From: a bacterium
Lineage (GTDB): Bacteria > CSSED10-310
Length of the DNA: 64,000 nucleotides
Direction of reading: 5' to 3'
Assembly (NCBI GenBank): GCA_049652745.1
Contig: JBASEY010000042.1
Location: 6,153 to 70,152 of the forward strand
Positions 6,240 to 56,824 of this stretch are shown here, one piece after another; positions within the stretch are counted from its first letter, which is position 1, and each line of letters opens with the position of its first letter. Made by a program: the position numbers and the translations under genes. A model generated the notes under the pieces. That model did not search any database. It was given only the letters and a program-made list of their open reading frames with translations, and was not told the origin of the DNA.

Positions 6240-7177
6240 TGCACCCCTCAAGACCGGCTCTAGAGATTAAAAACCTGAAAAAATATTACGGTAAATATGC
6301 TGCGTTGTCGGATTTGAATCTGGTTGTTCCAGTGGGTTCCATCATGGGGTTGGTCGGGCCGAACGGGGCGGGAAAAACGACGGCTTTCGCTATCGTTTCC
6401 GGGCTTCTCAAAGCGGATGGCGGATCGATAGATGTGTTGGGAAATGGCACATTTAACCCTGTGCTGCACAAAGGCGTTTTGACACTGCTGCCCCAAGATG
6501 CGCAGTTACCAGGCCATAGTCGTGTCAGGGAAACTCTGGTGTTTTTCGGTTTGCTTCAGGGATTGACAAAAAAAGAGGCAGTGTTTTCCGCTGATCGAGC
6601 TTTGGAGTGGGTTGAACTGGCTGATCGAGCGGATGCGCTGGTTTCAACGCTTTCTCATGGCATGGTACGACGGCTTACTGTTGCTCAGGCCTTTATAGGC
6701 AACCCCGCACTGGTTCTTCTGGATGAGCCGACCAGCGGCCTGGATCCCCACCAAATTGTGCGTATAAGAGAATTGATCTCTTCATTTCGAGGTCATCGAA
6801 CGATAGTGATCAGTTCTCACGTTCTATCGGAAATCGAAGCGGCATGTGATCACATCGCTTTTATCGATAACGGGTGTACAACACGGCAGGACAAACTGGA
6901 CGATGTCGTCGGCAAACAGCGGCAATTGACCTTTATTTTAACTAAAAGCATCGATCATGTACCTGTCGATATTATACGGGCCTGTCCTGAATCTACATTT
7001 ACATTGGATTTAGATGGTCGGCGTCTGATCGCCAGCTTCACAGATGCCGTTTCACCTGCTATGATCAACAGGAAATTGTTGCCGGTTCTGCTGCAGGAAG
7101 GAATCGATATCGATGAAGTTAGGCGTGGAAGCAATCTTGAAACAATTTACCTTGAAAATAAGATAAAACAGCGATAA
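6239..7177 (+). CDS. ABC transporter ATP-binding protein with a C-terminal extension
   Basis: Walker A GPNGAGKTT, signature LSHGMVRRL, Walker B LLLDEPTSGLD. I moved the start to the ATG at 6239, downstream of the track's 6173. Confidence 0.85.
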   Translation: MHPSRPALEIKNLKKYYGKYAALSDLNLVVPVGSIMGLVGPNGAGKTTAFAIVSGLLKADGGSIDVLGNGTFNPVLHKGVLTLLPQDAQLPGHSRVRETLVFFGLLQGLTKKEAVFSADRALEWVELADRADALVSTLSHGMVRRLTVAQAFIGNPALVLLDEPTSGLDPHQIVRIRELISSFRGHRTIVISSHVLSEIEAACDHIAFIDNGCTTRQDKLDDVVGKQRQLTFILTKSIDHVPVDIIRACPESTFTLDLDGRRLIASFTDAVSPAMINRKLLPVLLQEGIDIDEVRRGSNLETIYLENKIKQR

Positions 7178-44463: not shown

Positions 44464-45735
44464 GTGCGAACACGGATTGGGAGGTGTTTTATAGTGAATC
44501 ATTTCGGCAAAATAAAATGGTTTCTGGTGTTGATGTTTTTATTTCCTCGTGCGGTGTATTCAAATGCTGTGATTTACCCTGTTTTTGCGGATGGATGGCT
44601 TGTAGCCGGCAATAAAACCGTTGGGACGGCGGTTCGCCTTATGCGTGTCGGGATGTGGTCGGAGGCTCAGGAGGAACTGCAAAAGTCGGTATGGAATCGA
44701 CCGCGAAATCATGCCGCTCAATTCAATTTAGGCGTGTGCTATGAACGTGTCGGGCAGCTTGAAAACGCCAAACGTTTTTACCAGCGTGCCGTCGATCTTC
44801 GTCCGGAGGCTCTTTATTGTGAAGGACTGGCTCGTTTGGACGGCGTCGCAGGCAGGGGCGCTGAATTTGTCAAGTTTTTAATACCCTGTGATAGTTCGTG
44901 TAACCATGGATATGTATTTGCCAGAGCCGGCATGTGGGAATATGCCTCCCGGCTATTTGAAAATGCTTATCATTATCGATCGAATGCCACCACGGCTTTG
45001 AACCTTGCCGTGGCTTATGAAGTGTTGGGCAATCGTCGGGACGCCGATCGAATGATTCGGAATGCATCGGCATTGGGTAGTAATCAGCAATATTTGTCCT
45101 TCGCGCACTATCTGTCATCATCGTCGGATTTACCGTTGGAGATGGCGATATGTTTGCCGGATATTACGACCGTTACCGATATGCCGGTATTGAAAACAGC
45201 ATTTATCATCGGTGACAACGCAGTATTGCGTTTGAGTCCGTCGCACGACTCCCCTGTCTTGGCGCAGTTGCGCCAAAATACCCGGGTCGATGTTCTGTCG
45301 CTCTCATCGACGTGGACACGGGTTCGAACTCACCAAAACAAAGAAGGATTTTTACCGACACTGTTTCTCTCTTCAGAATATGTTACAGAAAAAACGGCAG
45401 TTCATGGTTATTCAACTGCGCATTCACAGGCTGCCGTAATAGAAGAGCATGAAGAATATGATGAGTATGAAGATATTTATGAACAGATTTTTGAAAATCC
45501 CGAGCCTTCGATTACCGTGACGATTCCTGAGGATGGAAACCGTGTAGCCATACGTGAAAAACCATCGTTGATGGCTGAAATAACGGGATATTTGGAGCCG
45601 GGGGATAGTCTGGAAGTCAGGGAAAGCGATGTTTCATCCTGGTATGAAATTGTTGATGATTCGCGGCCTCAAGGGTTTATCTTAAAAATGCATACCAAGG
45701 CGCTCGAAAAGCGCCTTCTTGGCGATGAGAACTGA
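44464..45735 (+). CDS. secreted TPR protein with two C-terminal bacterial SH3-like domains
   Basis: Signal peptide. TPR-like repeats. Two SH3b-like segments near the C-terminus. Confidence 0.5.
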   Translation: MRTRIGRCFIVNHFGKIKWFLVLMFLFPRAVYSNAVIYPVFADGWLVAGNKTVGTAVRLMRVGMWSEAQEELQKSVWNRPRNHAAQFNLGVCYERVGQLENAKRFYQRAVDLRPEALYCEGLARLDGVAGRGAEFVKFLIPCDSSCNHGYVFARAGMWEYASRLFENAYHYRSNATTALNLAVAYEVLGNRRDADRMIRNASALGSNQQYLSFAHYLSSSSDLPLEMAICLPDITTVTDMPVLKTAFIIGDNAVLRLSPSHDSPVLAQLRQNTRVDVLSLSSTWTRVRTHQNKEGFLPTLFLSSEYVTEKTAVHGYSTAHSQAAVIEEHEEYDEYEDIYEQIFENPEPSITVTIPEDGNRVAIREKPSLMAEITGYLEPGDSLEVRESDVSSWYEIVDDSRPQGFILKMHTKALEKRLLGDEN

Positions 45736-45740
45736 GCGGC

Positions 45741-45755
45741 GCGCTCTGCGAGCGC
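45741..45755 (+). terminator. stem-loop GCGCTC-TGC-GAGCGC directly after a stop codon
   Basis: 7-bp GC-rich stem with a 3-nt loop. The same 15-mer recurs at 49079-49093. Confidence 0.45.
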
Positions 45756-46060
45756 GGTTCCTGGTTTCTGGTACTGGGTTTCTGGTTAGGTTTTTCAGTA
45801 GATTCATTTTTGGTGAGTCACCTATATGGTGGTAGATAACTATAGTTTCTTAAGTCGAACCACTTGGTGATTGGTTATTGGACATTGGATATTGGATATT
45901 GAATCTTCCATCCCTTGCCCCTTACCTCTTACCCCTGCTTCTTGCTTATAAAGCTAACCATTTGGATATTGGACATTCGGTCATACTTGATACTTTTGTG
46001 ACCATGATGTATAATAACTACAAAGTTTGCATTCTTTGAGATAGCGACGGATTTTATCGC
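45756..46060 (+). repeat. intergenic repeat element, copy A, carrying the promoter and RBS of the downstream gene
   Basis: Shares the GGTTCCTGGTTTCTG 5' motif, ATTGGAN heptad tandems (45877-45904), polypyrimidine tract CCCTTGCCCCTTACCTCTTACCCCTGCT and 3' motif GGATTTTATCG.TG.CCTTTGAAAGAAGGAG with copies B and C. Contains TTGATA-17nt-TATAAT (45987-46015). Confidence 0.6.
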
Positions 46061-46066
46061 TGACCT

Positions 46067-49000
46067 TTGAAAGAAGGAGCCAACATTATGAAACATTATT
46101 GCTGGTGGATAAAAACGTTAGTTGTCATCTGTATTCTGTTCGGATGCCAACTCGCCTCTTCAATGGCTGCGGTCACCATCGATGTGGAGATGCGTTTGAA
46201 TGACGGCGGCTTTGTATCGTATGACCATTTTCAAGCCGATTTGTATCTGAATAACTTGGGTCGAATGGTGTCGGATGCGAGTATATTCGGAATACTCGAG
46301 GTAATGGGTGAGTTTTTCTTTTGGCCGTCATTTTCGAGTGAAGTTGATTTTGAGTTGATGGATATAAAACCTGGCGAAACGGTGGTGACTATTCTAGCGT
46401 TTGATTTCGGTGACATCGAGGATTTCATCCCGTTCGGGCCGATGGTTTTCTGGGGAGCCTGGTTTTTGGATATGGAAACGTGGAACTACGATTCTCAGGA
46501 GTTTTGGTTGGGTCCAGAGCATAAATGGACGCCGACCCCTACGCCTACACCGACATCTACGCCTGCATCCACAATAATAGTCTCAGAAATGGTTTTCATT
46601 CCTCCAGGAACTTACATGCGTGGTTCACCGGACGATGAACCCTGTCGTTTCGCAAATGAAATCCGCAGGCAGATCTCTCTGACTCGTGGGTTTTATATGA
46701 TGCAAACGGAGGTGACCCGTCGGATGTGGGCGGATCTGAAATCCGTTCAGCCGGATTTGCCGGATGATCCGAGCGCAACGGCATTCAGCCCGACGATGGA
46801 TCATCCTGTACAGAATGTTACATGGTTTGATGCAGTATTGTTTGCAAATCTCATGTCACTTCAGGAAGGGTACAGGCAGTGCTACTATCTGGACCAGGTT
46901 TTCATGACGCCGTTGGATGCGACGAATTACACTTCGAATTCAGTCTATTGTGATTTCAATGCAAATGGATATCGTCTGCCTACTGATGCGGAATGGGAAT
47001 ACGCGTGCCGAGCAGGATCGGTCGGGCCGTTTTCATGCAGTGACCCCGATTTTACCGATTTGACTTGTCAATCTTGTGTACCGGGAACTCATCCGGAATT
47101 GGAGCGGCATTGCGTGTATTGTGCCAATAATTGGAATGGACCTGAAGTTGTAGGCAGTAAGTATCCGAATATGTGGGGCTTATATGATATGCACGGGAAC
47201 GTGTTTGAATGGTGTTGGGATTGGTATACCGTGAATCCATCGAGACCATTTGTGGATCCGACGGGACCGGAAACCGGCATACATAGAGTGGAGCGCGGTG
47301 GTTCATGGAGCGTCTACGCACAAAACTGCCGCTCGGCGATTCGGAGCAAGAACACGCCTTACAACCGAGACAACAATCGGGGTTTTCGTCTTGTCAGAAG
47401 CGCTACCGGGTTTATTTATATTCCTGGAGGAACATACACGCAAGGTTCACCAGACGATGAACCCTGTCGTCAGAGTGATGAAGACCAATATCACGTCACA
47501 CTGACCTGCGGATTTGACATGATGGTTACGGAGGCGACTCGGCAGATGTGGGCGGATCTAAAGCATTTTCTGAGCAGCTTTCCGGAAGACCCGAGCGATA
47601 CGAGTATCAGCCCGTCAATGATTCATCCTGTGCAGAATGTCACATGGAACGAAGCCGTATTATTTGCGAATATCTTGTCGATAAAGCGTAGGTTTGTTCC
47701 GTGCTACTATGCTGATGCGGAATTTACGGATGCCATAAATCTGAATAATTACACCTCAGATACAATTTTTTGTAATTTCGACGCTAACGGATATCGTCTG
47801 CCTACCGAAGCGGAATGGGAATATGCGTGTCGGGCAGGGACGGTCTGGCCGTTTACATGCTATGAGCCGAAGTATAACACCCGTAATTGTGAAACCTGTG
47901 AAGAAGAAACACATCGAACACTGGAACAGTACTGCGTCTATTGTGCAGCCGGCCAGACAGGAGCGAGTGTTGTCGGCAGCAAAAATGCCAATCAATGGGG
48001 GTTTTACGACATGCATGGCAATGTGAATGAATGGTGTTGGGATAGATATGGTTCGTATCCATCGGGCTCTGTAACGGATCCGACGGGACCGGAAACAGGA
48101 TCAAATCGAGTGGCACGGGGTGGCAGTTGGAACTGTAGCGCACGGAGCTGTCGGTCGGCGAATCGCAACAGCATTGCTCCGGACAGCCGTAGCCACCTTC
48201 TAGGTTTTCGCCTTGTGAGGAAGCCTATGGAGCTTACTCATATTTCCTCAGGAGATTTCAATCAAGGTCCATCATGGTATTTAGAACCTTGTCGTGACTC
48301 CTCTCTTGAAATCGGGCGTCACGTTACGCTGACCAGAGATTTCGAAATAATGCTTACAGAGGTGACCCGGCAGATGTGGGCTGATTTGAAGGCTGTTTGC
48401 CCGATGTTGCCGAACGATCCGAGCGACGAGACGGTGAGTCCGACGATGGATCATCCCGTGCAGAATGTCACATGGAATGAAGCTGTATTATTTGCGAATC
48501 TGATGTCGGCAAAGGACGGCTACAGGCAGTGCTATTACAAAGATGCTTATTTCACGTTGGTGCTAAGTGTGACGAATTACAATGAGCGCTTTTTCTTTTG
48601 CGATTTTGAAGCGGATGGGTACCGCCTTCCCACTGAAGCGGAATGGGAATATGTGTGTAGGGCTGGGACGACCGGAGCGTTTTCATGCGATGAGCCGTAT
48701 TATGATAGCTATAATTGTGAATCCTGTGATCCGGGAACGCTCCTGGATCTGGAACAGTATTGCGTCTTTTGTGCAAATTCTTCGAATGGTGCTGAGCTTG
48801 TCGGCAGTAAGCTTCCTAATCCATGGGAATTGTATGACATGCATGGCAACGTGAGTGAGTGGTGTTGGGACTGCTTTGAAAAATATCCATCGAAGCCTGT
48901 TGTAGATCCGACAGGAGGACCGCAACCCTGCCCTCTCGATTCACGCATAGAGCGAGGCGGCAGTTGGGATCACCCCGCGAAGTTCTGTCGGACGGCAAGT

Positions 49001-49072
49001 CGATCTTTTAGTAACTCCCGCACCCGTAAAAATTATCGGGGTTTTCGTCTTGTCAAAACGGTATTCCGCTAA
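46067..49072 (+). CDS. lipoprotein with three tandem FGE-sulfatase (SUMF1/GldK-like) domains
   Basis: Lipobox LFGC. PTPTPTPTSTP linker. Three repeats of about 277 aa, each with YRLPTEAEWEY.CRAG, YDMHGNV.EWCWD and RGGSW motifs. DNA-level period about 831 bp (domains begin near 46568, 47411, 48242). Confidence 0.8.
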   Translation: MKEGANIMKHYCWWIKTLVVICILFGCQLASSMAAVTIDVEMRLNDGGFVSYDHFQADLYLNNLGRMVSDASIFGILEVMGEFFFWPSFSSEVDFELMDIKPGETVVTILAFDFGDIEDFIPFGPMVFWGAWFLDMETWNYDSQEFWLGPEHKWTPTPTPTPTSTPASTIIVSEMVFIPPGTYMRGSPDDEPCRFANEIRRQISLTRGFYMMQTEVTRRMWADLKSVQPDLPDDPSATAFSPTMDHPVQNVTWFDAVLFANLMSLQEGYRQCYYLDQVFMTPLDATNYTSNSVYCDFNANGYRLPTDAEWEYACRAGSVGPFSCSDPDFTDLTCQSCVPGTHPELERHCVYCANNWNGPEVVGSKYPNMWGLYDMHGNVFEWCWDWYTVNPSRPFVDPTGPETGIHRVERGGSWSVYAQNCRSAIRSKNTPYNRDNNRGFRLVRSATGFIYIPGGTYTQGSPDDEPCRQSDEDQYHVTLTCGFDMMVTEATRQMWADLKHFLSSFPEDPSDTSISPSMIHPVQNVTWNEAVLFANILSIKRRFVPCYYADAEFTDAINLNNYTSDTIFCNFDANGYRLPTEAEWEYACRAGTVWPFTCYEPKYNTRNCETCEEETHRTLEQYCVYCAAGQTGASVVGSKNANQWGFYDMHGNVNEWCWDRYGSYPSGSVTDPTGPETGSNRVARGGSWNCSARSCRSANRNSIAPDSRSHLLGFRLVRKPMELTHISSGDFNQGPSWYLEPCRDSSLEIGRHVTLTRDFEIMLTEVTRQMWADLKAVCPMLPNDPSDETVSPTMDHPVQNVTWNEAVLFANLMSAKDGYRQCYYKDAYFTLVLSVTNYNERFFFCDFEADGYRLPTEAEWEYVCRAGTTGAFSCDEPYYDSYNCESCDPGTLLDLEQYCVFCANSSNGAELVGSKLPNPWELYDMHGNVSEWCWDCFEKYPSKPVVDPTGGPQPCPLDSRIERGGSWDHPAKFCRTASRSFSNSRTRKNYRGFRLVKTVFR

Positions 49073-49078
49073 TCAGGT

Positions 49079-49093
49079 GCGCTCTGCGAGCGC
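49079..49093. terminator. bidirectional stem-loop GCGCTCTGCGAGCGC between convergent genes
   Basis: Identical 15-mer hairpin to 45741-45755. Followed by GTGCTGAG x2 and a GGTTTTTCA motif shared with copy A. Confidence 0.45.
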
Positions 49094-49130
49094 TTCAGTG
49101 CTGAGTGCTGAGTTATAGGTTTTTCACTCG

Positions 49131-50423
49131 TTAGTCGGAAAGCCGGAAAACACGGACACCGATCGTAAAACAAAGTAAACCGATACCAAGAGTTATCCCA
49201 CAGGGTAAAAGCATGTCAACGAATGAAAACTGTCGCCATACAGCGCCTTCCAAAGCCAGCATCGCCCATTTGATCGGGCTGACAAAGCTGATATTTTGCA
49301 GCCAGACCGGCATGACGAACAGTGGAATCATACCGCCGCCAAGCATGGACATGACAAGCAAGACAGCCCAGCCGATACCACTCGCCGACCGTTCCGTTTT
49401 GCCCAGAACGGACAGCAGCATCATAATCCCGACGAAACCGGTACAAATAGAAAGTATCGCCATCGCCAGAAGCGGAAAGGAATAGGGTTTTACCTGGAAA
49501 AAGAGTACGCCCAGCAACAGAAGTCCACACGAAATAGCCAGTGTCGTTAAAAAACATCCTAATGCTTTACCAGCCAGTATTTGCGTCATGCTCACAGGAG
49601 CGATTCGAAGTCGAGTCATAGTGCCGTGCGTCCGCTCGACGACCAATGAAATACTGAATACAGCGGTGCCTCCGATGATTCCCCAAATAATGCCTTGCGG
49701 AAATGATATGTCATAACCGTTTTGCGGCCCTTTTCGTTCACGTATTACTTCCGTGTAGTGAATAGTAAGAGGCTGAAATCCGGAGAAGCCTTCCGTGTCG
49801 GCAATTTCATCGTCGCTCTGATCGGTTTCGTTCAGATGCTCCATAAATTTGTCTAACTCCGTTAGGAATTGCCTGTAACGGTGAACTGTTTCCGAGCCCC
49901 ATTCGTTCGACTCATCCAGTTCCGGCAGAAAGGAGTGGATTTGTTCCCGCATCTTTACGGGATCAGAGAAGACTTTCTGAAATCCTGGAAGACTGTAATT
50001 CATCAGTATGCCTTGAAGCATTCCGGCGGTCACTTTCTGTGCAGGGTCAACCCCCAGCTCAACTTCCGGCGGCTGCCCCTGAAACAAATTCTTTCGCGCA
50101 TGGCCGAATCCGGGAAGCAGCACTACATATGCAGGTGCCGATCCCAGACGCACCTTTTCCACCGCTTCCTCCCGTGTTGCCATTTGAATACGCAGTTCAT
50201 CGGCATTTTCCAGTTGCCCGATGAATTCACGCGATTCATCACTCATGTCTTCATCCACTACCAATAAGGCAAGTGATCCTCTACTGCCGCCGCCTGAAAA
50301 GATAGTGCCGAAAAACAAGGCGAACAAAAGAGGAAAAAAGACTGTAAAGAAAAATCCAGGTTTATCACGAATCAACAAACGGATATCTTTCAGTGCCATG
50401 GTAAGTATTGTGCTCATGATCAA
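49131..50423 (-). CDS. ABC-2 type transporter permease
   Basis: N-terminal TM, large extracytoplasmic loop, then 5 C-terminal TM helices. Overlaps the ATPase gene by 4 nt. Confidence 0.7.
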   Translation of the reverse strand: MIMSTILTMALKDIRLLIRDKPGFFFTVFFPLLFALFFGTIFSGGGSRGSLALLVVDEDMSDESREFIGQLENADELRIQMATREEAVEKVRLGSAPAYVVLLPGFGHARKNLFQGQPPEVELGVDPAQKVTAGMLQGILMNYSLPGFQKVFSDPVKMREQIHSFLPELDESNEWGSETVHRYRQFLTELDKFMEHLNETDQSDDEIADTEGFSGFQPLTIHYTEVIRERKGPQNGYDISFPQGIIWGIIGGTAVFSISLVVERTHGTMTRLRIAPVSMTQILAGKALGCFLTTLAISCGLLLLGVLFFQVKPYSFPLLAMAILSICTGFVGIMMLLSVLGKTERSASGIGWAVLLVMSMLGGGMIPLFVMPVWLQNISFVSPIKWAMLALEGAVWRQFSFVDMLLPCGITLGIGLLCFTIGVRVFRLSD

Positions 50424-51304
50424 TCTCTCAGTGACCGGCCGGTCAGGGTTAGAAACACGTTTTCCAGTGTGGGTGATTCGACTGAGAAGCGCTGTAGATT
50501 TCCGCCGTTCTGAAGGCGAACCAGTTCCCCGACGGGGTCATTGGTTTCAATTCTGAATTGCCGGTCTTCCCGCTCAGCGATAACGACGCTTTTTCCACCG
50601 TGCGCAGCAATCAATTCATTGACAGTGCCCAGTGCAATCAATCGACCATGATCGACGATAGCGACCCGATCACAGAGTTTCTGGGCTTCTTCCATGTAGT
50701 GCGTAGTATAAAGAATGGTAACACCGCTGTTTTTGAGAAGCGTGACATTATCAAAAAGCGCGTTTCGTGACTGGGGGTCCACACCAGCGGTAGGTTCATC
50801 CATGAAAACGACTTTCGGCTGATGAATCAGCGCTGCCGCAAGATTCAGTCGTCGTTTCATGCCTCCCGAAAATATTCCTGCCCGGTCGCGTTTTCGATCG
50901 ATCAAACCGACAAAATCCAGGGATTCTTCAACGCGATTTTTCAAATAAGTTCCGTGTAACTGTTGCAACCGACCGAAAAAAAACAGGTTTTCTTCAGCGG
51001 TCAATTCATCATATAACGCTATCGCCTGAGGCGCTATACCGATCAAACGGCGAACCTCAGGGTTTTCCGGTGATCCCTTTCCTCCGATATCGACTCGGCC
51101 GCTATCCGGACGAAGTAAACCGGCTGCCATGCTTACCGTGGTTGTTTTCCCTGCTCCGTTAGGTCCCAGAAGACCAAACACTTCGCCGGAAGAAATTTTC
51201 AGAGACAAGTCGGCAACAGCAACCGTATCTCCGTATGTTTTTTTCAGATCTTCAAGATGTATCACAATAACGCCCTTTCCCCAAATATCGGATGAACAAA
51301 TCAT
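50420..51304 (-). CDS. ABC transporter ATP-binding protein
   Basis: Walker A GPNGAGKTT, signature FSGGMKRRL, Walker B VVFMDEPTAGVD. Confidence 0.85.
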   Translation of the reverse strand: MICSSDIWGKGVIVIHLEDLKKTYGDTVAVADLSLKISSGEVFGLLGPNGAGKTTTVSMAAGLLRPDSGRVDIGGKGSPENPEVRRLIGIAPQAIALYDELTAEENLFFFGRLQQLHGTYLKNRVEESLDFVGLIDRKRDRAGIFSGGMKRRLNLAAALIHQPKVVFMDEPTAGVDPQSRNALFDNVTLLKNSGVTILYTTHYMEEAQKLCDRVAIVDHGRLIALGTVNELIAAHGGKSVVIAEREDRQFRIETNDPVGELVRLQNGGNLQRFSVESPTLENVFLTLTGRSLRD

Positions 51305-51618
51305 ATTGCCTAATGACTATTTTTGGCAATAGTATTGGGGCCACATCTGTCTATCATGAGATGCTGTTAGACAAGCTGGAGATGTGGCTGAAAATATTTT
51401 GAACACGATTCCAAAGATTACAAAGATGGGCAGGATTAGATTCTGATCTCTTTTCAATTTGACGCAATGTTATAGGTGATTACAAATCCAAATCAAATAT
51501 AATCATTGTCGTTTTATTCAGATTGACCAATCGCCCGAAATCCTCCATAATACAAGCATTGCTGCCTTTACAAAGGCTTATGTTTGTTAGGTTTCTCACA
51601 TTAACGCAGGCAAGGACT

Positions 51619-52443
51619 ATGGATACGAAAATTGCAGTTTTCAAAGGGAAGAAAGTCCGGAAAACCATTCATAATAATGAATGGTGGTTTTCGGTAGTTG
51701 ATGTATGTTCAATTTTAACAGATAGTGCAGATCCCGGCGCTTATTGGCGTAAGTTAAAACAACGACTGAAAGAAGAAGGAAGCGAAGTCGTGACATTTTG
51801 TCACGGGTTGAAATTAGAAGCTCCAGACGGAAAGATGAGAAGCACCGATTGCGCTAATACAGAGGCTCTCTTTCGTGTAATCCAATCAATCCCGTCACCC
51901 AAGGCGGAACCATTCAAACGATGGCTTGCGAAAGTCGGATACGAGCGGGTTCAGGAAATCGAAGATCCGGAGTTGGCGACAAAGCGCACACGGGCTTTAT
52001 ATAAAGCGAAGGGATACAGTGACAATTGGATCGAGAAACGGATGCGCGGAATCGCAATCCGGGATGAACTCACTGATGAATGGCAAAAGCGCGGTGTCAA
52101 GGAAGCGTCCGAATACGCTATACTGACAGCGGAGATATACAAAGCGGCGTTCGACATGACGCCATCGGAATATAAAAAGCACAAAAATCTGAAACGGGAA
52201 AATCTGCGGGATCACATGACGGATCTTGAACTGATTTTTTCTATGCTTGGGGAAGCATCAACAACGGAGATTGCCAGAACCCGAGACGCAAGGGGTTTTG
52301 GTGAAAATAAAAAAGCAGCCAGGGACGGGGGCTCTGTTGCCGGCAGAGCCCGTAAAGATCTTGAGGAGAAAAGCGGTCGGAAATTGGTTTCAGAACAAAA
52401 CTATCTGGATGAACCGGAGGACAAGAAGTTGCTGGACAAATAG
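51619..52443 (+). CDS. Bro-N domain protein, DinD / phage-antirepressor-like
   Basis: The N-terminal IAVFKGKKVR...WWFSVVDVCSIL pattern matches Bro-N/DinD. Start set at MDTKIAVF. Confidence 0.6.
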   Translation: MDTKIAVFKGKKVRKTIHNNEWWFSVVDVCSILTDSADPGAYWRKLKQRLKEEGSEVVTFCHGLKLEAPDGKMRSTDCANTEALFRVIQSIPSPKAEPFKRWLAKVGYERVQEIEDPELATKRTRALYKAKGYSDNWIEKRMRGIAIRDELTDEWQKRGVKEASEYAILTAEIYKAAFDMTPSEYKKHKNLKRENLRDHMTDLELIFSMLGEASTTEIARTRDARGFGENKKAARDGGSVAGRARKDLEEKSGRKLVSEQNYLDEPEDKKLLDK

Positions 52444-52549
52444 AATAGATGATCAAACCAGGTTAGTTACATAAATACTTTCAAATGAGCTAACTTAAAA
52501 GGATAAATATTTTTTATGAGCACTTCAGATAGAGGCTTGAAGGGTTAGA

Positions 52550-52735
52550 ATGTTGGCTGCCAAAGATAAAATGCAAGAAATAATCAGAAACCAACCAGAC
52601 GACAGTACGTACGATGAAATTCTGAGGGAACTTGCTTTTGCAGGAATGATTGAGCGCGGTTTGAAAGATTCAAGAGCTGACCGATCGACCTCTAACGAAG
52701 AAATGAATCGCAGGATTCGTTCATGGCAGAGATAA
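52550..52735 (+). CDS. putative type II antitoxin (small, RHH/ParD-like)
   Basis: 61-aa ORF overlapping the downstream RelE/ParE-like ORF by 13 nt. C-terminal IERGLKDSRADR...EEMNRRIRSW pattern is typical of ParE/RelE-partner antitoxins. Confidence 0.45.
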   Translation: MLAAKDKMQEIIRNQPDDSTYDEILRELAFAGMIERGLKDSRADRSTSNEEMNRRIRSWQR

Positions 52736-52938
52736 AATGGACTGAAGAAGCCGTGAAATGGTTGGACGAGAAACATAATTACATCAAAATGGACAGTTCA
52801 TCCAAAGCTGATAAAGTTTTCTCAACAATATTTGATAGACTTCAGCTTTTAAAGTCATTTCCTGAATTAGGTTATCCAAATAAATCAGAAAAAGAAGGTG
52901 ACATTCGCGTCTATTCGCGGTTCCTGGTTTCTGATTGA
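52723..52938 (+). CDS. RelE/ParE-family toxin, apparently 3'-truncated by the repeat element (possible pseudogene)
   Basis: N-terminal alpha-helical ParE-like region ...FPELGYP...GDIRV. The last 7 codons and the stop are supplied by repeat copy B. Typical toxins are 85-100 aa; this one is 71. Confidence 0.45.
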   Translation: MAEIKWTEEAVKWLDEKHNYIKMDSSSKADKVFSTIFDRLQLLKSFPELGYPNKSEKEGDIRVYSRFLVSD

Positions 52939-53140
52939 GGTTTTTGATTGATACAGGTTCAATGATTTTTCTCTTTAAATTTGAAGACAATCGAGTCCGC
53001 TAACTATCACTTAGGAATTGGAAATTGGATATTGGACATTGAAAAATCCAACCCCTTACCCCTCACCTCTTACCCCTGCTCTTGGTGATTGAGAAAACAT
53101 ACAAAGGATTTTATCGATGGCCTTTGAAAGAAAAGGAATG
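52916..53140 (+). repeat. intergenic repeat element, copy B
   Basis: About 90% identical to copy C over about 180 bp. Heptads ATTGGAA ATTGGAT ATTGGAC ATTGAAA (53017-53044). Polypyrimidine tract. 3' motif GGATTTTATCGATGGCCTTTGAAAGAAAAGGA. Confidence 0.6.
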
Positions 53141-53187
53141 ATTAGAATCCGCACTTAGCCACAGATAAAATCTAATTATGATACAAA

Positions 53188-53592
53188 TTACTTTCTGTCT
53201 TTTAACAAATCGCGTATTTCTGTAAGCAATTTTTCCTGGACCGGGGGTTCCGGTGGAGCCTGGGGCGCTTCTTGCTCTTTCCGTTTGAGTGTGTTCATAG
53301 CCTTGACTGCCATGAAAATGGAGAAAGAGATGATCAGAAAATCGACGATCGTCTGAATGAATTTTCCATACCCGATGACAACCGCAGGATCATCTCCAAC
53401 AGCTTCTTTTAGAACAATCGCCAGGTTCGTGAAATCGACACCGCCCAACAATATACCGATAGGCGGCATGATCACATCACCTACGAAGGATGAAACGATT
53501 TTACCGAAAGCGGCACCGATAATGATACCGACAGCCATATCGATCACATTCCCTTTTACTGCAAATTCCTTGAACTCTTTTATCATACCCAT
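53188..53592 (-). CDS. mscL: large-conductance mechanosensitive channel
   Basis: Near-canonical MscL sequence ([35 protein letters not shown]...). Confidence 0.95.
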
Positions 53593-53797
53593 GGCACATC
53601 CCCCCTGTAAAAAATGATGGCTCTTATCGTCTGAAGAGCGATTGCTTTTGTGAAAGCGGATTTATGTTGCCGGTTGCGTAAAAAGCTTTTCTATTATCCC
53701 TTTTCTCATAATGACACGTTGACCGGCGTCTTTCGTTGCACCCTATAAATTATATCCAAAACGCGTGTTAACCGCAATGAAACGAGCATTCCACCTG

Positions 53798-53995
53798 CGC
53801 GGAACGCTGTTTCTGATTCCTGGTTGAGGTTTTTGATTGATACAGGTTCAATGATTTTTCTATTTAAATTTGAAGACAATCGCGCCTGCTAACTATCACT
53901 TGGGAATTGGAAATTGGACATTGAAAAATCCAACCCCTTATGCCTCCTACCTTACCCCTCACCCCCTGTTCCCGGCTTCTTGCCCTTCGATGGCT
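53798..53995 (+). repeat. intergenic repeat element, copy C
   Basis: Close homologue of copy B, with a rearranged 5' motif and one heptad fewer. Lies in direct orientation with B, so the two bracket mscL. Confidence 0.6.
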
Positions 53996-54060
53996 GATAG
54001 TGTTATCATAGACTTATAAAGATCAGCATTCCCAGTGTATGGCAGAGGAGGTTCGACGAT

Positions 54061-55386
54061 ATGGAAAAGCTTTTCAAGCTCAGGGAACACAAAACGGATG
54101 TGTCGACCGAAATCATGGCGGGTATCACGACGTTTTTGACGATGTCCTACATCATCGTCGTCAATCCCGGCATCTTGGAGGCTGCCGGGATACCCGTCGG
54201 TCCACAAACCGTCGCGACCATTTTAACGGCTGCTCTGGGCTGTATTTTGATGGCCTTTTATACCAATCGGCCGTTTGCGATGGCTCCCTATATGGGTGAA
54301 AATGCGTTCATCGCCTACACGGTTGTGCTGGGTATGGGCAAATCCTGGCAGGCGGGAATAACGGCTGTATTGATCGGAGGGATCGCCTTTATCTTGATCA
54401 CTGCGTTTAAGCTTCGTTCATGGTTGGCAGCGGCGATACCCACCAATTTGAAGCATTCGTTCGTCGTCGGCATAGGATTGTTTTTGACTTTGGTCGGCCT
54501 GTTGACATCGGGTCTGATCGTCAAACCGGAAGCCCCGGGAGTTCCAGTCGGAATAGGCGATTTAACGAGTGGTGAAAGCATTTTGGCCATCCTGGCGTTT
54601 TTGATCATGTCACTGATGATCATTCGCAAAATAAAAGGCGGCATCATGGCCGGAATTTTAGTGACGACCGCTCTGGCCTATTTCTTGAAATATACAGGCA
54701 TCGATCTGCCTTGTGTTTCCTTTCCTACAGGGTTTGTTTCCAAACCACCGTCTGTAACGCCCATCATGTTTCAATTTCGTTTCAACGAAGTGTTCACATG
54801 GGATTTTTTCCCCATTCTTTTAACCGTTTTTATCATGGATTTTGTCGACACCATGGGAACAGTCATCGGCGTCAGTGCTCGAGCAGGTTTTTTGGATGAG
54901 AACGGGAATCTTCCCGGCATAGAAAAGCCGATGATGGCCGATGCGATTTCTTCGGTTGTCGGTGCGTGTTTTGGAACGACCACCAGTGGCATCTATATCG
55001 AATCGGCGGCAGGAATCGAGGAAGGCGGCCGAACCGGTTTGACGACGCTGACAACCGGTGTTTTGTTTTTGCTGGCGCTGTTTTTTACGCCGATTTTGAC
55101 GGCGGTGCCTAAATGCGCTTATGGTCCGGCGCTGATCATCGTCGGGGTTCTGATGATGGACTCGGTACGAAGAATCGATTTTACGGATTTGACGGAGTGG
55201 ATACCTTCTTTTGTTGTCATCATCTTCATGTGTTTTTCCTATAATATCGGCATCGGCTGCACGGCGGGTTTTGTATCGTATCCGGTCGTAAAAACGATCG
55301 CCGGGAGATATCGAGAAGTCAATATCGGCACCTGGATTCTGGGCGCAGTATCGCTGCTGATGTTTATCTTTTATCCTTATCACTGA
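54061..55386 (+). CDS. NCS2-family purine permease (AzgA/PbuG-like guanine-hypoxanthine permease)
   Basis: The N-terminus TEIMAGITTFLTMSYIIVVNPGIL is typical of the AzgA/GhxP subfamily. RBS GGAGG upstream. Confidence 0.85.
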   Translation: MEKLFKLREHKTDVSTEIMAGITTFLTMSYIIVVNPGILEAAGIPVGPQTVATILTAALGCILMAFYTNRPFAMAPYMGENAFIAYTVVLGMGKSWQAGITAVLIGGIAFILITAFKLRSWLAAAIPTNLKHSFVVGIGLFLTLVGLLTSGLIVKPEAPGVPVGIGDLTSGESILAILAFLIMSLMIIRKIKGGIMAGILVTTALAYFLKYTGIDLPCVSFPTGFVSKPPSVTPIMFQFRFNEVFTWDFFPILLTVFIMDFVDTMGTVIGVSARAGFLDENGNLPGIEKPMMADAISSVVGACFGTTTSGIYIESAAGIEEGGRTGLTTLTTGVLFLLALFFTPILTAVPKCAYGPALIIVGVLMMDSVRRIDFTDLTEWIPSFVVIIFMCFSYNIGIGCTAGFVSYPVVKTIAGRYREVNIGTWILGAVSLLMFIFYPYH

Positions 55387-55453
55387 TCAAAGCAATAAAT
55401 CTATTAGGCGGTCAGCATTGAGCGATTTAGCCTGCTGTGCTATAAAACGCGGC

Positions 55454-56824
55454 ATGAAGAGGTTGGCTCCTGTTAAATATTTGTTCTTGATTTTGATAAT
55501 CGGTTTTTTCTTGTTGAATTCGGGATGTGATCGTGATGATTTGTCGAATTATCAACCGACAAAACAATCCGAAAAGCCGCTGAATGTATTGATGATTTGC
55601 CTGGACACGCTTCGCGCAGACCGGTTGAGCTGTTACGGATATGACCTGCCGACGTCACCGTTTATGGATGAACTGTCTCGACATTCTATTCTCCTGACAG
55701 ATGTGCTGGTTCAGAATCCTTCTACAATTTTGTCACACCGTGCTATCTTCACCGGGAATTATGTGTTCCGACAGGGGTCTGGGCCGGCACCCGAATCACA
55801 AACGCTTGCCGGTATACTGACAAAGGCGGGCTATGCCACAGCGGCATTCACGGATGGTGGTTTGATGAGCCTGCGTTTCGGCAACGCCCCTGGTTTCGAA
55901 CTCTATAACGATGCCGCAGGGGGCTCTAAACGCGTTTTCGGCAGAGGTGTCGACTGGATCGATTCCAATCCCGGAAAGCCGTTTTTTCTGTTTCTCCATA
56001 CTTATGAAGTTCATTACCCCTATACTCCTCCCCAACCATTTAACGATATGTTCCTGCCGACGGGTGAGCCACCTTATCACCTGGGAAAAGATTTCGGACA
56101 GGAGTATTGGAATAATCTGGATTTGAAAAGACAGGATTTTATTTGGATTTCCCGACGCTATGATGGTGGCATCAGATATGTCGATACGATTATGATGGAT
56201 TTGTGGAAAGCGTTGGTAACGCGAAACCTGTTGAACAACACAATTGTCATTATCCATTCCGATCACGGGGAAAGCATGGGGGAAAGACTCTTTGTCGGCC
56301 ATCGAGACCCCTATGAGCCTCAGATTCATATCCCGCTTCTGTTTCATGTTCCCGGCTGGAAACATGCCGTGATCGATGGCGCTGTCGAGAGCGTCGATAT
56401 CGCTCCCACCTTGCTCGATCTGCTCTCGATCAAATCACAAAGGTCTTTCTGCGGGCAGTCGCTGGTCTCAAATTTACACAACAGTGAACATTTAAGTGCG
56501 TTTCGACCCAGATTGAGCGAAACCTGGATGCGGGCATTTCGTCTTGGCCCTGAATGGAAATTGATGCTTTGTGACAAAGATGAAAATGATCGTTTATACC
56601 GTCTGACGGATGATCCTGAGGAAATGACAAGTCTGGACAAGGAATATCCGGAAATTGTCGAAGAGCTTAGACAAGGATTGGTACAGTTTATGGGGGTGGA
56701 GAGAACTCGCATTCACAAATTACCGGAAGCGCCCAAGGTGCCGGTTGTTTTGATGCCACTGGACGGTGAAAACGAAGAAAATGTCGAGATGCAACAATTG
56801 AGAGAATTAGGGTATATTCACTAA
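55454..56824 (+). CDS. sulfatase-like hydrolase/transferase of the alkaline-phosphatase superfamily (Thr-nucleophile variant, not the CxPxR type)
   Basis: Lipoprotein signal (LLNSGC). MICLDTLRADRLSCYGY motif in place of C-x-P-x-R. Metal-binding HSDHGE motif. Confidence 0.7.
   Translation: MKRLAPVKYLFLILIIGFFLLNSGCDRDDLSNYQPTKQSEKPLNVLMICLDTLRADRLSCYGYDLPTSPFMDELSRHSILLTDVLVQNPSTILSHRAIFTGNYVFRQGSGPAPESQTLAGILTKAGYATAAFTDGGLMSLRFGNAPGFELYNDAAGGSKRVFGRGVDWIDSNPGKPFFLFLHTYEVHYPYTPPQPFNDMFLPTGEPPYHLGKDFGQEYWNNLDLKRQDFIWISRRYDGGIRYVDTIMMDLWKALVTRNLLNNTIVIIHSDHGESMGERLFVGHRDPYEPQIHIPLLFHVPGWKHAVIDGAVESVDIAPTLLDLLSIKSQRSFCGQSLVSNLHNSEHLSAFRPRLSETWMRAFRLGPEWKLMLCDKDENDRLYRLTDDPEEMTSLDKEYPEIVEELRQGLVQFMGVERTRIHKLPEAPKVPVVLMPLDGENEENVEMQQLRELGYIH

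Follow-up and report, generated by a model that had tools for sequence, protein, structure and literature searches.

The locus lies in a 64 kb window, by which the whole stretch of DNA that was analysed is meant, and it is compared with four relatives, Rel1 to Rel4. The genes and repeat copies between the TPR/SH3 gene and the right flank are the following.

45741 to 46075, forward strand: repeat copy A. The TPR/SH3 gene is followed here by a terminator-like hairpin and a GGTTTCT array, then come a distinct middle section and two further arrays, one of ATTGGAT and one that is C-rich, and a promoter and the FGE 5'UTR complete the copy.
46088 to 49072: the FGE gene, the product of which has three FGE-sulfatase domains.
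49079 to 49128, forward strand: a partial repeat copy after the FGE stop codon, with a hairpin, an AGTGCTG array and GGTTTTTCA.
49131 to 51304, reverse strand: the genes for an ABC-2 permease and an ABC ATPase, a pair that in Rel4 is natively located next to mscL, on its downstream side.
51400 to 51442, forward strand: module X, a second dispersed repeat module (GATTACAAA array ... GGCAGGATTAGATT), between the ABC ATPase gene and the Bro-N gene.
51583 to 52446, forward strand: a horizontally acquired cassette with a Bro-N/DinD-like gene (Pfam Bro-N).
52550 to 52735, forward strand: an intact antitoxin gene of 61 aa, recognized as an ORF.
52723 to 52938, forward strand: a 3'-truncated ParE/RelE-family toxin ORF of 71 aa, recognized by Pfam, homologue alignment, blastn and tblastn.
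52903 to 53135, forward strand: repeat copy B, with two ATTCGCG decamers, GGTTCCTGGTTTCTG, a core that copy C also has, heptamer arrays of AATTGGA and then ACCCCTT, and a tail, in that order; Rel1 and Rel3 have the degenerate element R0 at this position.
53136 to 53187: the mscL 3' flank, which is native and has orthologues in Rel1, Rel2 and Rel3.
53188 to 53592, reverse strand: an intact mscL gene of 134 aa (Pfam MscL, E 2.6e-48).
53790 to 53965, forward strand: repeat copy C, the 5' end of which continues the mscL upstream region, as does element E1 in Rel1.
54061 to 55386, forward strand: a xanthine/uracil-family permease gene (Pfam), with which the collinear right flank starts.

The 71-aa ORF carries the GenBank annotation RelE/ParE family toxin. 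It matches the Pfam profile ParE_toxin (PF05016) with an E-value of 9.6e-06 and 26.5 bits against a cut-off of 23, and its residues 4–64 cover only positions 1–60 of the 89 positions in the profile. A search of NCBIfam with the ORF gave no match, and a 98-aa homologue gave a RelE_StbE match that is below the cut-off. The toxin subfamily is rare, with only 9 clusters among 5.8 billion proteins, and a protein database search returned eight homologues besides the ORF itself. Six of these are 98 aa long; the other two (81 and 83 aa) either diverge or stop short. The ORF can be aligned to homologue residues 1–63, after which it diverges (YSRFLVSD and the stop codon), and residues 64–98 of the six full-length proteins have no counterpart in it. 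The 98-aa homologues align to the solved ParE structure PDB 6x0a over positions 14–95, and the missing segment, which includes YRIxY...IEIxxIxHGA, aligns to residues ~75–106 of that structure. The complete ParE fold, which includes the C-terminal beta-strands and helix of this segment, is therefore not encoded by the ORF. The truncation that the first-pass annotation had proposed is confirmed by this alignment, in which the full-length proteins are 98 aa, not 71, and the C-terminal core is absent from the ORF. The surviving 63 residues are presumably non-toxic, as they are without the conserved C-terminal core. The dN/dS of the truncated toxin is 0.27, not ~1, which means either that the truncation is recent or that the fragment has some remaining role. 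A literature search on ParE truncation returned nothing usable.

The locus resembles type II toxin-antitoxin modules (PF05016) in having, upstream of the toxin, a small antitoxin ORF that runs into its start, an overlap noted before and here found to be 13 nt, and in that the N-terminal two-thirds of the toxin match the profile. It is unlike functional ParE/RelE members in that the window copy is without profile positions 61–89 and the antitoxin is outside the curated families, matching neither Pfam nor NCBIfam.

The homology limit of the toxin is codon 63 (nt ~52911). A full-length toxin used in tblastn matches the window at 52723–52911 only, the last nucleotide that matches Rel1 by blastn is 52910, and the C-terminal 35 aa of the full-length toxin have no tblastn match in the whole 64 kb window (best E 2.4). 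Copy B was earlier thought to begin at 52916 and to contain the last seven codons and the stop codon of the ORF. The overlap is real, but it is longer than that. The 21-mer ATTCGCGTCTATTCGCGGTTC (52903–52923) recurs in the Rel2 repeat element that precedes the permease and has the decamer three times in tandem, so the true start of copy B is ~52903 and ~12 codons plus the stop codon overlap the repeat. The toxin-derived part of the ORF is 52723 to ~52902–52911 and the remaining codons and the stop codon are copy B sequence; the toxin does end inside copy B, with homology stopping at nt ~52911 and the repeat starting at ~52903. The junction lies in ~10 nt of microhomology between toxin codons 60–63, GAC ATT CGC GTC, and the ATTCGCGTCT module of the repeat. 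The first decamer of copy B reads (C)ATTCGCGTC(T), and the microhomology is ATTCG(C/T)GT(C/T).

The mscL gene is ~86% identical in nucleotide sequence to that of all four relatives, with a dN/dS of 0.054, and its upstream region of 197 nt (53593–53789) is conserved. In the orientation of the window, the gene order in Rel1 is FGE, mscL (reverse), antitoxin, toxin (98 aa) and permease, and Rel3 has the same order. Rel2, which belongs to one species cluster with Rel1 (95.9–97.8% nucleotide identity), features TPR/SH3, antitoxin', mscL (reverse) and permease, and Rel4 features the two ABC genes followed by mscL (reverse). The toxin-antitoxin pair of Rel1 and Rel3 is on the other side of mscL, which leaves room for a translocation history. 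The ABC pair of the window is 83% identical in nucleotide sequence to that of L078, where it is 246–265 nt from mscL, and collinearity of the permease flank with Rel1, Rel2 and Rel3 sets in at about 53866–53972. Because mscL has the same neighbourhood in four related lineages, and conserved flanks of its own, it is, as judged by gene order, native to this neighbourhood, with repeat elements on both sides. A JGI metagenome scan with the permease found 32 loci (best 73% identity); the seven closest or most informative of these, which were checked for neighbours, have no adjoining mscL or toxin-antitoxin pair and were of no help in polarising events.

Element R0 and its flank in Rel1 and Rel3 are the orthologues of the copy B tail and the mscL 3' flank. 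Since a degenerate copy is found at the same mscL 3' position in these sister genomes, copy B most likely predates the truncation, and the junction in microhomology points to a deletion. We therefore favour, with a probability of roughly 0.6, the reading that ORF 52723–52938 is the dead remnant of a 98-codon ParE/RelE-family toxin gene that lost its 3' end by deletion beside the pre-existing copy B. The deletion would have taken the 3' third of the toxin gene and any spacer behind it. Its right breakpoint would have been the 5' end of copy B, which would already have separated the toxin-antitoxin pair from the mscL 3' end, and the antitoxin would have been left intact. The junction pattern would fit illegitimate recombination or replication slippage, not transposition. 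Both the deletion and the order in which copy B came first are deduced from the degenerate R0 of Rel1 and Rel3 and from the microhomology, and the 3' end of an intact toxin copy to the left of mscL was observed in no genome.

Antitoxin orthologues in Rel1 and Rel3 are paired with the 98-aa toxin, and the same pair is also found in more distant loci. The Rel2 antitoxin has no toxin; it is 91% identical in nucleotide sequence over window positions 52534–52723, and its fusion to the mscL 3' flank, near codon 55, is at the microhomology AATC.CAG.AT.CG. The dN/dS of the antitoxin is 0.15–0.21. In the window, other sequence has taken the place of the native antitoxin promoter region, upstream of 52536. 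Its dS is 0.22 between the window and Rel2 and 0.37 between Rel1 and Rel2, whereas the dS of the genome backbone is 0.75 for the former pair and 0.09–0.14 for the latter. The antitoxin phylogeny tracks the position relative to mscL, not the genome phylogeny. These values indicate that the antitoxin to the left of mscL is a distinct copy common to the window and Rel2, and that this toxin-antitoxin copy has apparently decayed further in the Rel2 lineage, to the orphan antitoxin only. Both decay junctions, in the window and in Rel2, are at short and imperfect microhomologies, like those of the microhomology-mediated (illegitimate) deletions that form bacterial pseudogenes. Compared with such deletions there is nothing unusual in the window, and the likeness concerns a proposed mechanism, not a family. 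The close relatives provide a natural toxin-antitoxin decay series that consists of an intact pair, a clipped toxin and an orphan antitoxin. Decay of the toxin first, leaving the antitoxin, is a well-known fate of chromosomal toxin-antitoxin loci. The 71-aa ORF is better treated as a pseudogene or toxin remnant beside a surviving antitoxin, and the locus is a case of ordinary toxin-antitoxin decay in a repeat-rich, rearrangement-prone hotspot.

Copy B is a member of a lineage-specific, modular intergenic repeat family in an uncultured lineage. The modules of the family are short tandem arrays (GGTTTCT, ATTGGAY, ACCCCTT, AGTGCTG and ATTCGCGNNN), and the heptamer arrays in the repeat copies are detected by TRF. 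All family modules of the window are within 45.7–54.0 kb and on the forward strand. The copies are mosaics that differ in module content and length, every inspected copy is intergenic, and elements are found at the same intergenic positions in the relatives. The elements are co-oriented with the neighbouring genes and take up the space from a terminator-like hairpin to the promoter of the following gene, a rule drawn from about a dozen copies inspected by eye. The 18-mer CGCGGTTCCTGGTTTCTG is also found at the start of copy A (45753). The tail of copy B resembles the 5'UTR/RBS of the FGE gene, with 53106–53132 being 93% identical to 46049–46075, and the 3' half of copy C runs on into the permease promoter region, as does element E2 in Rel1. 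Rel1 has five repeat copies in 6.5 kb. The MAG CAYOJK01 has six pattern matches on five contigs, and blastn finds additional copies in those loci. Module X is 91–98% identical to three copies in a locus of CAYOJK01 (L020), a genome that is otherwise dissimilar, and has zero matches in the viral contig collection IMG/VR. An Rfam search of 50–56 kb at a permissive E-value gave a chance snoRNA-like match only (E 0.89) and found neither a riboswitch ahead of the permease nor any known RNA within the repeats. Folding of copies A, B and C on both strands gave z-scores of -0.4 to +0.2, except for -1.75 for the minus strand of A, and there is no support for a structured RNA in the repeats.

The family can be likened to the STRR heptanucleotide sequences of heterocystous cyanobacteria, and to REP/BIME and ERIC, in being dispersed, intergenic, lineage-specific and associated with rearrangement breakpoints; the likeness to STRR is a presumed one, and the literature search confirms only that the term STRR is in use. 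As in STRR, the copies are built of short tandem heptamer arrays (GGTTTCT, ATTGGAY, ACCCCTT), and the STRR-like character, tandem arrays of 7–10 nt units that are dispersed and intergenic in one lineage, is found here. However, the motifs and the host differ, the latter not evidently being a cyanobacterium, and unlike STRR, REP and ERIC the family has several different arrays in a fixed order between hairpin and promoter. It also differs from REP in that it is without a palindromic stem, with folding z-scores of ~0 and no Rfam match. What is documented is a repeat family without an Rfam match, the copies of which in the window coincide exactly with a synteny-breaking segment. The segment that is not collinear with Rel2 is 45773–53971 in the window (8.2 kb) and corresponds to 1.08 kb in Rel2, and the 45.7–54.0 kb range of the repeat modules is this same segment. 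The best explanation is that the repeat elements mark a hotspot of cassette gain and loss, which involves the FGE gene, the ABC pair, Bro-N and the toxin-antitoxin pair.

A different history, which we consider unlikely, is a repeat-mediated translocation of the mscL unit from a Rel1-like ancestor with the order mscL, E1, antitoxin, toxin, E2 and permease. A circle of mscL plus repeat would have been excised by homologous recombination and re-integrated into the element upstream of the permease, B and C would be the recombinant direct repeats, the toxin would have been clipped by a later deletion, and excision of the unit may be continuing today. In Rel1 and Rel3 the toxin-antitoxin pair and mscL are in the opposite order to the window, which is consistent with this, as is the mosaic structure of copy C, which has an E1-like 5' end and an E2-like 3' half. 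Copies B (52916–53076) and C (53805–53965) are, as the first-pass annotation had stated, direct copies that flank mscL; they are 889 bp apart from start to start, and 81% identical ungapped and 86% gapped. Their core is 94% identical (85/90) with an exact run of 38 nt (52935–52972 and 53824–53861, where chance expectation is zero matches), whereas their 5' ends are just 50% identical, which also suits the translocation; in the favoured reading the near-identical core probably results from gene conversion. Additionally, Logan contig L022 joins the truncated toxin and copy B directly to copy C and the permease, the switch point being exactly within the 38-nt core, on either side of which the contig is 100% identical to the window, and contig L002 is 919 nt long, the 889-nt period plus 30 nt, with a 30-nt prefix that equals its suffix, the signature of a cycle in the assembly graph. 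However, the k=31 Logan branching is inconsistent in other samples (L023 with L030), and L022 and L002 may be coverage drop-outs; contig ends at k=31 are a hint only, and L022, which lacks mscL, is ambiguous. The position of the antitoxin in Rel2, to the left of mscL as in the window, although Rel2 belongs to the species cluster of Rel1, also argues against the translocation. The Rel2 antitoxin allele is closer to that of the window than to that of Rel1, which implies two old distinct copies and no recent hop, and the tail of copy B is found where Rel1 has R0. A one-off recent translocation, be it of the toxin-antitoxin pair or of mscL, was downgraded as the main explanation, as the antitoxin phylogeny follows position.

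A broader proposal, distinctly unlikely in our judgement, is that the heptamer-array repeats act as recombinase-independent cassette boundaries, where co-oriented copies recombine and excise, delete or re-insert single-gene units, and that the 889-bp unit of B, mscL and C is polymorphic in natural populations. L022 would then be the deletion allele and L002 a circular or tandem form. If this were true, the repeat family would organise a hypervariable locus in an uncultured lineage, and excision of the mscL unit in populations would be a tidy case of repeat-driven gene-content polymorphism. As things stand, the locus shows ordinary genome dynamics and the value of the finding is mainly corrective.

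The first-pass annotation had suggested that insertion of the repeat inactivated the toxin and that the block at 51.3–54 kb is an accessory islet or a composite element that carries mscL as cargo. In this account, which we regard as very improbable and which is largely refuted, a MITE-like element was inserted into the toxin and a composite transposon with mscL lies in a Bro-N-led islet. It takes its appeal from a family that is multi-copy and dispersed, a toxin that ends at an element boundary, the direct repeats B and C, an AT-rich block and the horizontally acquired Bro-N gene. The repeats are like MITEs and IS-bounded composite transposons in being multi-copy short non-coding elements, two direct copies of which bracket a gene. 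They differ from both in that they have no terminal inverted repeats, target duplications, fixed length or cognate transposase. An inverted-repeat search of A, B and C found internal, non-terminal pairs only, no target-site duplication flanking the elements is visible in the sequence, and length and modules vary among the copies. The insertion model is further contradicted by the absence of any 3' remnant of the toxin beyond copy B or anywhere in the window, and by the degenerate copy at the same mscL 3' position in Rel1 and Rel3. No transposase, recombinase or integrase gene is found at 51–54 kb among the ORFs or by Pfam, and there is no tRNA gene anywhere in the window. Unlike the cargo of a composite transposon, the bracketed mscL is native in the relatives; it is found with its flanks in the same neighbourhood in Rel1 to Rel4, none of which provides an empty site, the elements are at the same intergenic positions there, and mscL is not to be read as mobile cargo.

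The block is indeed AT-richer than its surroundings, with a GC content of 0.36–0.45 versus 0.47–0.51 in the flanks. Most of the AT-richness is due to the toxin-antitoxin genes and to intergenic and repeat DNA, and the Bro-N cassette has a GC content of 0.461 against a window mean of 0.468. The islet suggestion holds in part. The Bro-N cassette (51583–52446) is accessory, and it alone is both absent from the relatives, Rel1 to Rel4, and discretely bounded. It is 85.5% identical in nucleotide sequence to L033–L035, in an unrelated context, and the limits of the match are exact: it begins 36 nt before the ATG and ends 3 nt after the stop codon. The Bro-N protein has at least 8000 matches at E <= 1e-20; the 120 matches listed are about 77–99% identical and come from several phyla, and the context of a 93%-identical homologue is also unrelated. 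A single islet is not supported. The hallmarks of one (integrase, tRNA target, deviant composition) are absent, and mscL is common to all four relatives, the antitoxin to Rel1–Rel3 and the toxin to Rel1 and Rel3. In Rel4 the ABC pair adjoins mscL, which limits the extra block to about 51281–53184, and by comparison of gene content this block is composite in turn, with a separately acquired Bro-N cassette and an antitoxin that is common to Rel2 and on the same side of mscL there.

An assembly artefact, a MAG contig with chimeric joins at the repeats and a toxin that is in truth not truncated, is hardly credible. In its favour, the Logan unitigs (k=31) always break within the shared 38-nt core, and the full path from truncated toxin through B, mscL and C to the permease is therefore found only in the NCBI MAG contig. 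Against it, the toxin/B junction (52903–52934) is upstream of the ambiguous core and was assembled independently, with 100% identity, in five Logan contigs (L022–L026), L002 and L003 provide continuity from the rest of B to mscL and from mscL to C, and B and C differ outside the 38 nt. Reads of 150 nt or a k above 38 should resolve B from C.

The repeat copies are accompanied by promoter-like sites. Downstream of copy A, at 45987–46015, there is a TTGATA-17-TATAAT site with 11/12 matches, and just 3' of copy C, at 53980–54009, there is a TTGCCC-18-TATCAT site that is conserved in Rel1 and Rel2. A 15-bp inverted repeat at 53107–53121 and 53158–53172 may be the mscL terminator. Two distant toxin homologues, P0004 and P0005, are located in unrelated neighbourhoods that adjoin integrase fragments, and all that these contexts show is that the toxin-antitoxin family is mobile elsewhere.

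The window lies on contig JARKRM010000173.1 of MAG GCA_029973845.1. The features of the locus, in window coordinates, are as follows.

44464-45735, + strand: TPR/SH3 protein
~45741-46075, + strand: repeat copy A
46088-49072, + strand: FGE gene, encoding a protein with three FGE-sulfatase domains
49131-51304, - strand: ABC-2 permease and ABC ATPase
51619-52443, + strand: Bro-N/DinD-like gene
52550-52735, + strand: antitoxin
52723-52938, + strand: toxin ORF
from ~52903, between toxin and mscL, + strand: repeat copy B
53188-53592, - strand: mscL
between mscL and permease, + strand: repeat copy C
54061-55386, + strand: xanthine/uracil-family permease
55418-56824, + strand: sulfatase

The toxin ORF is 71 codons long and, as the first-pass annotation proposed, it is truncated at the repeat. 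The Pfam ParE_toxin profile covers residues 4-64, corresponding to profile positions 1-60 of 89. The toxin subfamily is rare, forming nine clusters in a search of 5.8 billion proteins; six of the nine feature 98 aa rather than about 71, two (81 and 83 aa) are divergent or stop short, and the window ORF is the ninth. Alignment to the family revealed that the window toxin conforms up to ...EGDIRV (residue 63, position 52911) and then reads YSRFLVSD*, and that the C-terminal segment of the full-length homologues, LLYGHYRI(V/A)Y...IE(I/V)(L/I)G(V/I)FH(S/G)A(L/M)DIE(R/K)(F/Y)L, is absent. The toxin-family profile aligns to the solved ParE structure 6x0a over positions 14-95, which include the segment missing in the window. 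A full-length toxin used as tblastn query matched the window only at 52723-52911, and its last 35 residues had no match anywhere in the 64 kb. An assembly error at the junction of toxin and copy B is ruled out by five independent Logan contigs that carry it at 100% identity. Judged from these alignments, the ORF is a toxin pseudogene with a surviving antitoxin, a toxin-antitoxin module in decay.

Four related arrangements were found by exact-protein look-up; their gene orders are listed in window orientation.

Rel1 (L004-L009): TPR/SH3, FGE, FGE, mscL(-), antitoxin, toxin (98 aa), permease
Rel2 (L072-L077, including GCA_046128275.1): TPR/SH3, 60-aa antitoxin, mscL(-), permease; without toxin, FGE, ABC and Bro-N
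Rel3 (L079): Rel1-like core mscL-antitoxin-toxin-permease; left neighbour differs
Rel4 (L078): ABC-2 permease, ABC ATPase, mscL(-); spacer of only ~250 nt

The mscL and permease genes are 95.5-99.5% identical among Rel1, Rel2 and Rel3, the window shares about 86% identity with each of these, and Rel4 is 83-86% identical to the window and Rel1-Rel3. Orthology across the relatives covers mscL together with its 3' flank and ~200 nt upstream; mscL is therefore native, and the proposal that it is the cargo of a composite element is not sustained. Rel1 features repeat elements on both sides of mscL, a degenerate element (R0) at the 3' side and another (E1) at the 5' side. R0 and copy B have a common start, CGCGGTTCC, and a common end, ATCGATG...GATYAGAATC.

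The blastn homology between the window and Rel1 toxin-antitoxin pairs spans 52536-52910, and the 21-mer ATTCGCGTCTATTCGCGGTTC (52903-52923) straddles the point where toxin homology gives way to copy B. This 21-mer occurs exactly in all Rel2 loci, within an element 5' of the permease that features the decamer YYATTCGCGK three times in tandem and no toxin similarity. Its recurrence outside a toxin context places the start of copy B at ~52903; the overlap of the toxin 3' end with the repeat stands, and the earlier start at 52916 does not. Toxin codons 60-63 read GAC ATT CGC GTC in the window and GAT ATT CGT GTT in Rel1, and they overlap the first decamer of the element, giving a microhomology of ~10 nt. 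Insertion of the element into the toxin, as first proposed, is not supported: no toxin remnant lies 3' of copy B, and Rel1 and Rel3 have a counterpart element. The same two observations make deletion the simplest event: the element at the B position would already have been resident before the toxin was clipped, and a deletion would then have joined toxin codon ~63 to copy B at its 5' end. The mechanistic reading thereby moves from insertion and a composite transposon to an inferred deletion at an intergenic repeat already in place, in a hotspot of cassette shuffling. In Rel2, the antitoxin is fused at ~codon 55 to the mscL 3' flank across the imperfect homology AATC(G/A)CAG(G/A)AT(T/C)CG, the trace of a further deletion of this kind, a larger one, that removed the toxin and the B-position element. 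The orphan antitoxin (60 aa; L072 reverse complement 6772-6961 and equivalent positions in L073-L077) has its last codons replaced, and the toxin is absent.

In Rel1 and Rel3 the toxin-antitoxin genes stand on the right side of mscL; the window has them on the left side, as does Rel2 with its antitoxin alone. Antitoxin synonymous divergence (dS) between window and Rel2 is 0.22; the window-Rel1 value is 0.47 and the Rel1-Rel2 value 0.37. For the backbone, dS is 0.75 between window and Rel1 and 0.09-0.14 between Rel1 and Rel2. Antitoxin divergence tracks position and not genome phylogeny, so the left and right copies are distinct and old; a recent hop in the window lineage is rejected on the same ground. 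The window-Rel2 antitoxin dS of 0.22 against the backbone value of 0.75 suggests that lineages have exchanged the toxin-antitoxin region or that the polymorphism is an old one, and the left-of-mscL copy may have been the one exchanged. The antitoxin promoter region, GAAATGTTATACT..., is conserved between Rel1 and Rel2 and is replaced in the window 5' of 52536 (52447-52549).

Copies B and C were confirmed as direct repeats, with a spacing of 889 bp, an exact core of 38 nt and a gapped identity of 86%; the 18-mer first noted in copy B is present and also opens copy A. The B/C core is 94% identical versus 50% at the 5' ends, which looks like gene conversion between resident elements. A scan of GTDB species-representative genomes for the pattern common to A, B and C gave six hits in one other MAG, CAYOJK01, spread over five of its contigs; the remaining matches were few and isolated, mostly in identifiably unrelated taxa (e.g. 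Pedobacter, Lachnospiraceae, Tamlana). The CAYOJK01 loci have no nucleotide similarity to the window beyond the repeats, which feature the same module string: GC hairpin, (GGTTTCT)n, GGTTTTTCAG-type stretch, AACTATAG...CACTTGG, (ATTGGAY)n and (ACCCCTT)n. TRF detected period-7 arrays in A, B and C; in a partial copy 3' of the FGE gene (49079-49128) the array unit is AGTGCTG. Terminal inverted repeats are lacking in the copies, folding gave no RNA-structure signal, and an Rfam search of 50-56 kb, which covers B and C, found no match for either. Directly 3' of A lies a promoter-like site, TTGATA-17-TATAAT, and C is directly followed by another, TTGCCC-18-TATCAT, which relatives conserve. Copy A and the post-FGE copy each open with a terminator-like hairpin. 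At the loci inspected all copies are intergenic, each co-oriented with at least one flanking gene. The family is read as a lineage-specific modular intergenic repeat and not a transposable element. In kind it comes nearest to the STRR heptamer repeats of cyanobacteria. The window adds a new member to each of two known kinds, the toxin pseudogene whose antitoxin survives and the STRR-like repeat family.

The 3' tail of copy B (53106-53132) matches the FGE 5'UTR/RBS region (46049-46075) at 93% identity and still has a relic RBS and ATG (MIRIRT* mini-ORF); an FGE-type gene may once have followed copy B, which would then be what is left of its upstream region. A 15-bp inverted repeat (53107-53121/53158-53172; 87% complementary, 36-nt loop) spans this tail and the mscL 3' flank and may be the mscL terminator. 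A second dispersed repeat, the 43-nt module X (GAACACGATTACAAAGATTACAAAGATGGGCAGGATTAGATT, 51400-51442), is 91-98% identical to three CAYOJK01 copies (L020 6368-6410, 6663-6705, 6791-6833) and had no match in the IMG/VR viral contig collection.

The accessory islet proposed at 51.3-54 kb holds in part: Bro-N is acquired and a block of ~51281-53184 is extra, but mscL is native. At least 8000 proteins match the Bro-N/DinD-like protein at E <= 1e-20, and the best 120 of these have about 77-99% identity across several phyla. The nearest foreign copy is 85.5% identical at the nucleotide level, with gene-bounded homology (51583-52446) in an unrelated context. On these comparisons, Bro-N is a separate, horizontally acquired cassette. 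Sources named among the matches listed include Syntrophales, Omnitrophota, Thermodesulfobacteriota and Sedimentisphaerales, and the conservation is unusually strong for a gene moving between phyla. The extra DNA relative to Rel4, between the ABC ATPase and mscL, contains module X, Bro-N, antitoxin, clipped toxin and copy B. The segment non-collinear with Rel2 (45773-53971) runs from copy A at its left edge to copy C at its right, and includes all repeat-family modules of the 64 kb, on the + strand. The AT-richness noted earlier is real; its main sources are the toxin-antitoxin genes, the intergenic DNA and the repeats, and Bro-N is not among them.

Present-day excision of the mscL unit is a possibility raised by two assembly contigs. 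A Logan contig (L022, SRR35431069), 100% identical to the window on both sides (52292-54927 region), runs from the toxin and the 5' end of copy B to the 3' part of copy C and the permease, switching inside the 38-nt core and omitting mscL. A second contig (L002, SRR35431072) carries mscL in 919 nt, the 889-nt period plus k-1, and its identical 30-nt ends are the signature of an assembly-graph cycle. Together the two contigs match what would be expected if a deletion allele occurred alongside mscL units in circular or tandem form, and they may represent these. They may instead be k-mer graph artefacts: the branching pattern is inconsistent in another sample, so coverage drop-outs in the k=31 graphs are a possible source.

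The 994-aa FGE-sulfatase protein features an internal triplication (46593-49058; units of 822 and 828 nt, 68-84% identity), and Rel1 has an extra 444-aa FGE gene upstream and Rel2 has none. Two tandem sulfatase genes lie 3' of the permease in Rel2 (L072 3634-5121), and one in the window (~55.4-56.9 kb) and in Rel1.
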